A stretch of DNA of 21,933 nucleotides from a virus (lineage: Duplodnaviria; Heunggongvirae; Uroviricota; Caudoviricetes). A model generated the notes under the pieces. It worked only from the letters and a program-made list of their open reading frames with translations. It was not told the DNA's origin and searched no databases. How positions within the stretch are numbered: the first letter of the stretch is position 1; each line of letters opens with the position of its first letter. A program made the translations under genes and the position numbers. The stretch is from IMG/VR virus record IMGVR_UViG_3300046534_001355; one strand, written 5' to 3'. Below are positions 17,467 to 18,814 of this stretch, piece by piece.

Positions 17467-18814
17467 TTATATTTTTTCGCAAAAAGAAGAATAATCTCCA
17501 CAGATTAAGCAACTGACAAGCTCTCTTTGTGCGGGATATATTTGGGACTCATTTACAAGCCCTGTATATGGTAAGAGTGATTTATGTATCAAGTTAAAAA
17601 CGTGAGACTTCTCATTAGTTGTTAAACTTTTTTTGGATAATATGGATGCCAAGTGCTCAACGCAAATAACCAGCCATGCATTAAACATTTTTACTATTTC
17701 TGCTTCATTTTTATTGCTTGATAAGATATAAATCAAACCTGTTTGTAATACCAAGGCTCTTTGTTTAATGGAGAAAGATGTTTTAGATAGATGTGGTTCT
17801 TCATGGCGATTCAGAGAGTAGTAGCCCTTTCTTGCCAGTATAGATATCGTATTAGCTACAGTTAGGCTCTGGCAAGAAAAAAGCATATCCTCATAGACTG
17901 AAATTGATGGGTTAAATAAGATGTTGTTATTGATTAGCAACTCTCTTTTAAAGAACTTGAAGATTTTTAATGATCTAAAAAGATGGTTTTTTATAATATC
18001 TGCTTTATTCGTGTCTGCCTTAAATGGGCGTACAGGAACCCCTCTCCCTGTAGAGGAAACCTGCTTGAAATATACAATGTCACTATTGTTTTTATAAGCC
18101 ATCTGAATACCATCGGACAGTAAGTCAGAGTGAATGGAATCATCAGAGTCTAAGAAAAACACATAGCGACCTTTTGCGGATTTTATTCCCTCATTTCGCG
18201 GCGCTGATGCATTCCCTGAACCAACTGCTCTACGGATAATACGATAATTTATTTCTCTCGAAATGTTATATTCAATGGCGGCAATGCTACTGTCAGTGGA
18301 ACAGTCATTAAAGATTTAATGCATTCGAGAATAAGGGTTTCTCGGTTGTGAACCGGAATAACAACTGAGACATCAAAGGGATAAATAGAATTAATTTCAT
18401 TAATTACCGTTGTGATTTTTAGAAGAGAAGTATGCAGGGCTGTTGTTAAAACAGCAGAAGATGAAATGTTTTCTTTTTTAGTGTTGCCTTTTATAGTATA
18501 ATAAGGGCAATTATTTCGTAGTACAAAATCCACATTCACACCTGGCTGGCTGGCTGGCTGGCTGGCTGGCTGGCTGGCTGGCTGGCTGGCTGGCTGGCTG
18601 GCTGGCTGGCTGGCTGGCTGGCTGGCTGGCTGGCTGGCTGGCTGGCTGGCTGGCTGGCTGTGAAATCTAATGCAAATTTCACCCCTTTATATTCGAAGTC
18701 AATAACGAAGCAGTTTTCATTGTATAGCCATGTTTTTTTGATGTGGTCACGTAGTGTTGTTTTCTCAAAGAATCCAACTATATTTTCAGACATGGCAGTG
18801 ATATCAGTTTTCAT
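17467..18814 (-). pseudogene. GT2-family glycosyltransferase, frameshifted, with 5' CCAG tetranucleotide repeat tract (candidate phase-variable gene)
   Basis: Three ORF fragments on the minus strand: leader + (ASQP)n (18536-18814), DVSVVIPVHNRETLILECIKSL (18249-18539), and ...DCSTDSS...SGNASAPRNEGIKSAKGRYVFFLDSDD (17467-18162 frame, open upstream to about 18315). These are canonical GT-A/GT2 motifs split across two frames. Confidence 0.65.
18542..18660. repeat. Tetranucleotide simple-sequence repeat (CTGG)x29 plus partial unit (CCAG/AGCC on the coding minus strand)
   Basis: 119 nt of uninterrupted CTGG units read directly; translated as (ASQP)n in the leader frame and stop-free in all three frames of the coding strand. 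Confidence 0.97.

Follow-up and report, generated by a model that had tools for sequence, protein, structure and literature searches.

The window analyzed here, i.e., the whole 21,933-nt stretch of the tailed-phage record IMGVR_UViG_3300046534_001355, is a defective P2-like prophage that carries a perfect tetranucleotide tract at 18542-18660, (CTGG)29.75 on the plus strand and (CCAG)29 on the coding minus strand, within the 5' part of a family 2 glycosyltransferase (GT2) gene. Slippage at the tract determines the frame in which this gene is read, and it is probable that it acts as a hypermutable translational frameshift switch in related Escherichia coli prophages and persists as a vestige in the window. 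The identification as a contingency locus is in keeping with the long perfect tract, the conserved cassette to which it belongs and the maintained open reading frames (ORFs). This design had been recognized in an earlier reading of the window (the original prediction), and it is borne out by near-identical loci, which hold from 7 to about 70 units and form a single ORF only when the unit number n is divisible by three.

The tract and the reading frame of the glycosyltransferase gene

Tandem Repeats Finder (TRF) reports a single array at 18542-18660 (period 4, 29.8 copies, 100% matches, 0 indels, score 238), in agreement with the approximately 30 copies of CTGG originally counted there, and every other array that it finds in the 21.9-kb window has at most 2.4 copies. 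A (CTGG)4 probe, allowed at most one mismatch, gives 27 overlapping matches, every one inside the tract, against a chance expectation of 0.00 (100 dinucleotide-preserving shuffles). On the minus strand (CCAG)29 translates as (ASQP)n and is stop-free in all frames, as had been proposed. The tract has the hallmarks of a contingency locus: a perfect repeat, a unit not divisible by three and a position within a leader ORF. This ORF (18536-18814, minus strand) starts at an ATG at 18814, 157 nt before the tract, and in its present OFF phase encodes 92 amino acids (aa), of which the first 52 belong to the N-terminal domain of the glycosyltransferase (GT) and the remainder to the repeat loop (..ASQV*). 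It was correctly predicted to end immediately after the tract, at a TGA (18538-18536) that overlaps the GTG of the GT frame (GTGA). A putative Shine-Dalgarno-like GAGGT is read at 18821-18825 (minus strand), 6 nt 5' of the ATG, and a candidate sigma-70-like promoter (TTCACA-17-TATAAT, 11/12 match) lies at 19051-19079 on the same strand, approximately 237 nt upstream of the ATG; the latter agrees with the consensus and no more, and comparable matches are not more frequent in the region than chance predicts.

Translation can enter the tract from a single start codon, which leaves one ON phase and two OFF phases. The frame that would be joined to the leader in the ON phase is the post-repeat fragment carrying the VVIPVHN motif (18249-18539, minus strand), which encodes the rest of the N-terminal domain and the first strand and helix of the GT-A fold (..DVSVVIPVHNRETLILECIKSL) before it runs out of frame into a stop. 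According to an in-silico simulation of the frames, n=30 (a gain of one unit) or n=27 (a loss of two) fuses the leader to the VVIPVHN frame, and n=28 or n=31 ends in ...ARCECGFCTTK*. The window, with n=29, is in an OFF phase.

The gene sits in a 2.4-kb island (17260-19700) that, in a megablast comparison against 5,426 complete E. coli genomes, is present in 30, including REL606, ATCC 11303 and other E. coli B stocks, at an identity of 97.5-100% across its matches. Repeat numbers were taken from 20 fetched loci of this allele (allele a), near-identical to one another (flanks 97.5-100%), and are 7, 10, 11, 12, 15, 18, 18, 20, 21, 21+, 23, 32+, 34, 34, 35, 45, 50, 59, 60 and 66 units, where "+" denotes an interrupted tract. 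The comparison of repeat counts among related genomes that had been proposed as a check thus yields numbers that are far from invariant. REL606 carries (CCAG)7 at the same position and with flanks identical to those of the window tract. Even within one laboratory's E. coli B stock and its drug-selected derivatives (seven genomes; direct counts and match lengths), four have 35 units, two have 34 and one has 45.

These numbers translate directly into reading frames. An ORF running from the leader ATG to the GT stop (450-540 aa) is found in 7/20 allele-a loci, six with uninterrupted tracts in which n is divisible by three and the seventh, DETEC-P881, with an interrupted, longer tract; at these full-length loci the Prokaryotic Genome Annotation Pipeline (PGAP) annotates one glycosyltransferase of 453-540 aa. 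Out-of-frame loci have leader stubs of 68-132 aa. The 1113-nt GT ORF is nevertheless intact in every OFF locus fetched, so that coding capacity is preserved while the gene is OFF. Instability within populations is documented in the literature for the REL606 locus, ECB_01992, which is described there as a gene of unknown function (PMC7750951; PMC12147273). A 4-nt indel in its 7-unit tract was reported at a frequency of 19-34% in REL1206-derived cultures and the tract was termed hypermutable (PMC7750951); likewise, a one-unit gain was reported in a 28-day experiment, and the site was again called hypermutable (PMC12147273).

ECB_01992 is the same locus as that of the window, which differs from it in having 29 units and a broken GT. 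The break is a 46-bp deletion, overlooked in the original prediction, whose junction at 18307^18308 is defined by alignment to REL606 and three other loci. The lost codons (..NNQTIDKNCFEVIFID..) cover the conserved GT-A residues Q137, F148 and D150 (invariant positions, family alignment numbering), and the loss shifts the reading frame; a substitution lies nearby at 18289 (A in the window, C in relatives; R to S). The 46 bp are present in each of the 29 complete E. coli genomes with the GT locus, as seen with a 161-nt window query that matches as two pieces spanning 207 nt in the relatives. Because the 46 bp are missing, the VVIPVHN frame closes after 96 codons (18249), and the remaining GT body lies in a third frame (17467-18307, minus strand; ..DCSTD..GSGNASAPRNEGIK..FFLDSDD.., followed by a helical C-terminal region to CEKI*) that is unreachable from the leader in every repeat phase.

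The predicted effect of one unit gained or two lost therefore stands as far as the fusion to the VVIPVHN frame is concerned, but the product is cut short by the deletion: the best joined "ON" ORF has 185-189 aa and ends in ..ECIKSLMTVPLTVALPPLNITFREK*, whereas restoring the 46 bp in silico gives a joined ORF of 461-465 aa. The separate deletion frameshifts the catalytic domain, and thus no repeat number restores the enzyme of the window. The downstream domain, which had been expected to be switchable here, is disabled by the deletion together with the nearby substitution. That the switch works in this very genome, one unit gained or two lost yielding an active glycosyltransferase, is in keeping with the joining of the frames at n=27 or n=30 and with the full enzyme of the relatives; the 185-189 aa of the joined ORF refute it unless the 46-bp deletion is an assembly artefact, and it is scarcely credible. 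In any phase the product is of at most 189 aa, and switching changes no functional product. As judged from its sequence, the switch of the window is vestigial and uncoupled from any enzyme.

The enzyme and its N-terminal domain

The assignment of the tract to the 5' part of a glycosyltransferase gene, part of the original prediction, is confirmed by the Pfam match of an intact relative (PF00535, E 3e-28, above the gathering score) and by homologues in which the leader is contiguous with the GT. The DxD motif (..FFLDSDD..) has D203, D205 and D206 invariant in 23 homologues, and the window still encodes it, in the 17467-18307 frame, disconnected from any start. The closest solved relatives in phmmer searches are Staphylococcus aureus TarS, prophage-encoded TarP and Listeria RmlT (E 2e-39 to 5e-22). 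In line with this, Foldseek aligns the enzyme to TarS, TarP and RmlT over approximately 320-330 columns (target-normalised template modelling score 0.80-0.86, E 6e-27, ~26% identity), and the match reaches past the Rossmann-like core into the acceptor-binding helical region of TarS and TarP. TarS, TarP and RmlT glycosylate poly-ribitol-phosphate teichoic acid. The enzyme is thus predicted, from both sequence and fold, to be a polymer-decorating GT2 transferase of the TarS/TarP type.

In PHROGs the enzyme belongs to family 22088, whose function is unannotated and whose 377-position profile corresponds to the OFF-phase ORF; weak partial matches to GtrB-like "O-antigen conversion" families arise through the shared GT2 core. 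A tblastn search of 50,697 phage records returned no close homologue, only Gram-positive TarP-like genes at up to 40% identity, which indicates that the locus is known from prophages and viral contigs and not from deposited isolated phages. Additionally, no gtrA- or gtrC-like ORF accompanies the GT in 17260-19700, so that it stands as a single gene and not as part of a GtrABC operon. A single GT with neither a membrane segment nor a gtrA or gtrC partner is expected to work in the cytoplasm, its acceptor being a polymer that leaves the cell through an ATP-binding cassette (ABC) transporter.

Database searches with a repeat-trimmed query retrieve repeat-free or short-repeat homologues of ~430 aa in which the leader runs directly into the post-repeat segment. 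One of them (P0003, 64% identity) reads FALDFTANQTSLNVDFVLR across the site; others are a Leclercia protein (56% identity) and P0007, and an E. coli allele (P0001) has only three units and the peptide ASQPG. In the alignment of 23 sequences two conserved strand-like motifs enclose the site of the repeat, a short loop that varies in length and is a turn of 4-9 residues in repeat-free homologues. Similarly, an AlphaFold2 model (pLDDT 91.5, pTM 0.86) places ASQP (residues 53-56) at the turn that links strands 45-53 and 58-64 within an alpha/beta domain at the N-terminus, composed of H5-17, H20-24, E25-31, E35-42, E45-53, E58-64, E79-86 and H88-109. The repeat is thus predicted to encode an expandable hairpin loop, (ASQP)n. 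The leader supplies H5-17, H20-24, E25-31, E35-42 and E45-53 of the model; hence, what had been called a leader ORF is indeed an ORF that ends after the tract, but is more than a leader, contributing three strands and two helices of a conserved N-terminal domain. It follows from the homologues and the model that the fused ORF is the native form, and the OFF phases would remove half of a folded domain. At the tract site a repeat-free allele reads ACC GCC AAC CAG ACA, where GCCAGCCAG, from which the tract could plausibly have grown, is a single A-to-G change away. The small beta-sheet domain to which the leader contributes has the motif W-x-Y...FA-x-DF; it lies N-terminally in the enterobacterial proteins and C-terminally in Campylobacter and Psychrobacter homologues (P0030 and P0050, as compared with P0001), and its occurrence at opposite ends marks it as an autonomous module.

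This architecture bears on two alternatives to a frameshift switch. The first is that the catalytic part is made regardless of phase from an internal GTG (18533, the PGAP start, or 18539), and that the repeat only gates the attachment of the N-terminal domain, modulating activity or localization. An AGGTG located 5-6 nt before PGAP's GTG start of a 370-aa ORF could allow such repeat-independent initiation in this allele, and in the phase in which n leaves a remainder of two on division by three, the overlap between the leader stop and the GTG (GTGA) is compatible with termination-reinitiation. However, this context is absent in alleles b and c, whose post-tract sequences begin CCATTTGTAAGC.. 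and CCATGAGC.., and so is not conserved; the truncation would cut through a domain, removing three of its strands and two helices and keeping the rest of its strands; and the small domain is conserved family-wide, being kept even at the other end of the protein in the Campylobacter and Psychrobacter homologues. Internal initiation of this kind is accordingly considered improbable.

The second alternative holds that the selected trait is the variable (ASQP)n loop itself, a disordered, PT-like linker that would tune the enzyme, with frameshifts as a by-product. The tract does match the Pfam PT disordered repeat, the hairpin turn varies in length across homologues, and the loops of ON loci range from ~20 to 88 residues. 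Set against this, two thirds of the loci are out of frame, a 4-bp unit makes an in-frame change the minority outcome and repeat-free homologues suffice with a turn of 4-9 residues, all of which makes loop tuning a very improbable account of the tract.

A cassette shared among prophages and its possible capsule substrate

The leader and tract recur in front of other GT bodies. Two diverged alleles, at 55% and 64% protein identity, are annotated as "partial", and their draft contigs stop precisely at the expected tract. In E. coli short-read drafts with alleles b and c (L021-L027), the contig stops exactly at the repeat in each case (position 1). As a consequence of short-read contigs ending at the repeat, the GT is routinely deposited as "partial", and PHROG 22088 models the OFF-phase ORF only. 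Complete genomes show allele b behind the same leader, with a CCAG tract of 188 nt (46 full units) or 280 nt (69 full units), an OFF phase in either case; a tailspike gene encoding a P22-type head-binding domain lies on one side of it, and on the other is intS (E. coli strain C) or torT (strain GMF054). The leader-tract junction precedes the GT bodies of alleles a, b and c in viral and metagenome contigs, and a fourth allele, d (P0006), comes from a Logan assembly contig. Compared with the REL606 allele, the leader is 93-94% identical in DNA, the 300 nt that precede it are ~55% identical and the GT body is 61-66% identical. In CUVM3 (L031 630-1858) and CPww7, two copies of the GT family are present, the second with an IS3 in place of leader and repeat.

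The proteins encoded next to the GT in the two settings also show some likeness. The P2-type fibre of the window (14397-17255) and the P22-type tailspikes convergent with the other alleles (L029 3171-5123 and L025 1362-3632) have an S74 chaperone domain in common (23-30% identity), and their central regions are weakly similar (E 1e-5 and 1e-3). This similarity hints at a module in which a receptor-binding protein and a GT travel together, and is suggestive rather than conclusive.

A lead for the substrate comes from capsule loci. In E. coli AF16 the repeat-free homologue (L124 12831-14159) is part of region 2 of a teichoic-acid-like kps (group 2) capsule locus, with genes for a TagF-like CDP-glycerol glycerophosphotransferase and a TarI/TarJ-like cytidylyltransferase/reductase nearby and a fragment of a tail-fibre-assembly gene adjoining, which suggests transfer between a phage and the capsule locus. 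Likewise, a Campylobacter coli homologue is found in a kps locus with TagF-like and TarI/TarJ-like genes. Another repeat-free homologue, in AST215 (L033), has the same capsule setting as that of AF16 and a leader with a TAG stop. A related kps region 2 of polyol-phosphate type, the B type (L127 10579-16029, CFSAN061763), contains TagF-like, TarI/TarJ-like, hypothetical and "phage baseplate protein" genes and no GT2. Among natural complete genomes just 17 have an intact B-type region 2, and 7 of these belong to the 18 natural allele-a lysogens, for an expectation of 0.06 (Fisher p 2e-14, or 1.5e-10 with near-duplicates collapsed; kinship is ignored in both). AF16-type capsule genes had also been sought in the lysogens and were set aside, being present at 85% identity or above only in the two repeat-free genomes; it was the search at lower stringency that exposed the B-type association.

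From these sequence relationships, the most likely substrate would be a group 2 capsule of the polyol-phosphate (teichoic-acid-like) kind or a comparable glycopolymer of the surface, and we put a capsule-decorating function of the GT at somewhat short of an even chance. More broadly, and as a tentative proposal, a mobile cassette of leader and (CCAG)n, common to diverged TarP-like GT genes and present in at least two lineages of E. coli temperate phages (P2-like and P22-like), may drive stochastic glycosylation of a teichoic-acid-like K capsule that is the probable receptor of the fibre or tailspike. The mechanism in the preferred reading of the relatives is slipped-strand mispairing, which adds or removes 4-bp units; only with n divisible by three (in this allele) does the 52-aa N-terminal segment come into frame, giving an enzyme of 450-540 aa with an (ASQP)n loop, variable in length, in its N-terminal beta-sheet domain, and in the other two phases translation stops just past the tract, leaving an enzyme devoid of three strands and two helices. 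A lysogen population would then have mixed surface decoration, e.g., as a benefit against phages or antibodies that read the polymer. The window itself is in the OFF state at n=29 and has, in addition, a frameshifted catalytic domain.

Several observations weigh against a switch maintained by selection and directed at a capsule. The ON fraction of 7/20 equals the neutral-drift expectation of 1/3 and gives no evidence of selection on phase, which it neither supports nor contradicts. Tracts of 45-70 units exceed the typical length of contingency repeats and could reflect unconstrained expansion, and some of the unit counts come from long-read assemblies, in which tract length can be mis-called. 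PADLOC assigns 0 defence families at E <= 0.01. The B-type region 2 is disrupted by IS1A in E. coli B (REL606, BL21 and others), so that the GT is probably left without a substrate there, a situation that fits the neutral decay seen in the window. Moreover, 11/18 natural lysogens are devoid of the B-type capsule region, and a sample of 60 rows from the 196 genomes that have TarI/TarJ-like genes includes none of these 11; the capsule hypothesis therefore covers part of the hosts.

The same ON fraction, the very long and scattered tract lengths, the IS1-disrupted capsule locus of the B lineage, the additional inactivating deletion in the window and the one copy that lost leader and tract to an IS3 insertion would all be accounted for if the tract were a runaway microsatellite, neutral and devoid of any adaptive role in switching, that is tolerated because it falls in a surface loop, within a cargo gene that is decaying in hosts lacking its substrate. 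This explanation is at odds with the conservation of leader and tract at 93-94% in two phage lineages while upstream DNA (~55%) and GT bodies (61-66%) diverge, with the GT ORF being intact in all fetched OFF loci and the tracts nearly always perfect, and with a unit of 4 bp, which, as opposed to one of 3 or 6, suits a switch rather than a tolerated linker. It is regarded as unlikely, though less so than the other alternatives considered here, and a frameshift switch in the relatives of the window is the preferred interpretation.

Prophage context and comparison with known systems

The island that carries the gene is cargo of low GC content (~30-39%, with ~50-59% in the DNA around it), delimited by composition, Pfam matches and the RefSeq annotation of relatives. 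On one side of it is the tail fibre gene H (14397-17255, plus strand), whose product is a tail-collar fibre with an S74 chaperone domain at its C-terminus, and on the other the tail sheath gene FI (to 21047, plus strand), both identified through Pfam. This position presumably corresponds to the Z/fun cargo slot of P2 between the fibre genes and FI. Baseplate genes are also found in the window, as are an integrase (161-1174, minus strand) and gpA (3698-6022). Just 3' of the gpA gene is a three-gene defence-type system of the ABC-three-component (ABC-3C) class (6111-9800, plus strand), whose components are a 407-aa esterase-like protein with a CTD8 domain, a 170-aa MC4 middle component and a 656-aa SMC/ABC-ATPase-like protein. 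A portal fragment of 324 aa (10116-11090, minus strand) lies on the strand opposite to the tail genes, and an ORF at 21060-21839 (plus strand) fuses the N-terminal portion of the tail tube protein FII to the C-terminal portion of gpD, which implies that the intervening genes were deleted.

The ~850 nt of low-GC DNA 5' of the GT gene (18870-19700) contain no convincing ORF and have five terminator-like hairpins on the minus strand; relatives annotate differing small hypothetical ORFs in this region. Across 17200-19800 there are 8 terminator-like sites, with 1.6 expected. Between the convergent tail fibre and GT genes, a GC-rich inverted repeat at 17398-17427 (12-bp stem, 6-nt loop) has a T-run preceding it on the plus strand and an A-run following it on the minus strand; it was rejected as the GT terminator, as the T and A runs are on the wrong sides and the terminator scan is silent there. 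Rfam returned nothing in the window.

Repeat contingency genes are textbook knowledge for Haemophilus, Neisseria and Campylobacter, and phase variation in E. coli usually proceeds by inversion or Dam methylation; to our knowledge, E. coli is generally thought to lack repeat-based contingency genes. The lipooligosaccharide (LOS) contingency loci of Haemophilus influenzae include lic2A with (CAAT)n, lgtC with (GACA)n and lex2A with (GCAA)n. The locus described here resembles them in having a tetranucleotide repeat in the 5' portion of a glycosyltransferase coding sequence, a single ON phase against two OFF phases and a strain-variable count. It differs from them in being E. coli prophage cargo, in having its tract 157 nt into the ORF and inside a folded domain rather than just past the start, in tracts that reach ~70 units and in a TarS/TarP-like product instead of an LOS core transferase. 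With the modA genes of Neisseria and Haemophilus it shares the way in which frameshifts act as a switch and also the repeat unit, since AGCC is CCAG circularly permuted; the product of modA is a type III DNA methyltransferase, whereas here it is a glycosyltransferase, and sequence kinship beyond the repeat is not expected.

The enzyme itself resembles S. aureus TarS and TarP and Listeria RmlT, its best sequence and fold matches, and TarP is likewise prophage cargo that re-decorates a surface polymer. Unlike TarS and TarP, it belongs to a Gram-negative host, has an extra small domain in place of the trimerization domains and is predicted to be gated by a repeat; we know of no repeat-gated expression of tarP or tarS. 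In encoding a phase-variable modification of surface glycans on a prophage, the locus parallels gtrABC of Salmonella and P22, the more so as alleles b and c adjoin a P22-type tailspike gene and the strain C allele, between intS and the tailspike gene, occupies the position of gtr in P22. Phase variation of gtr is epigenetic (Dam/OxyR), and its three membrane proteins use undecaprenyl-phosphate-glucose (Und-P-glucose) in the periplasm. By contrast, the gene described here encodes a single soluble GT2 and is switched by DNA slippage.

The hypermutability of the REL606 tract is already known, ECB_01992 having been treated as a nuisance hotspot (PMC7750951; PMC12147273). In the literature searched, which left most subscription journals outside, no earlier account treats the locus as a phase-variable glycosyltransferase or describes the cassette, the capsule link, the architecture of the domains or the range of 7 to ~70 units.

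The tract explains both the recurrent "hypermutable" calls in REL606 evolution experiments and the systematic contig breaks in short-read assemblies, and the ON/OFF state and repeat length recorded in published genomes depend on the colony that was sequenced. The window preserves a relic switch on a dead gene. In its relatives, a classical contingency design, unusual for E. coli, is carried on prophages. If the cassette reading is true, it would be a prophage-borne slippage counterpart of the Haemophilus LOS loci and of staphylococcal TarP, decayed in a standard strain of experimental evolution; and if the capsule link is also true, it would constitute a new route by which temperate phages diversify the K-antigen, and hence phage and immune recognition, within a clone.

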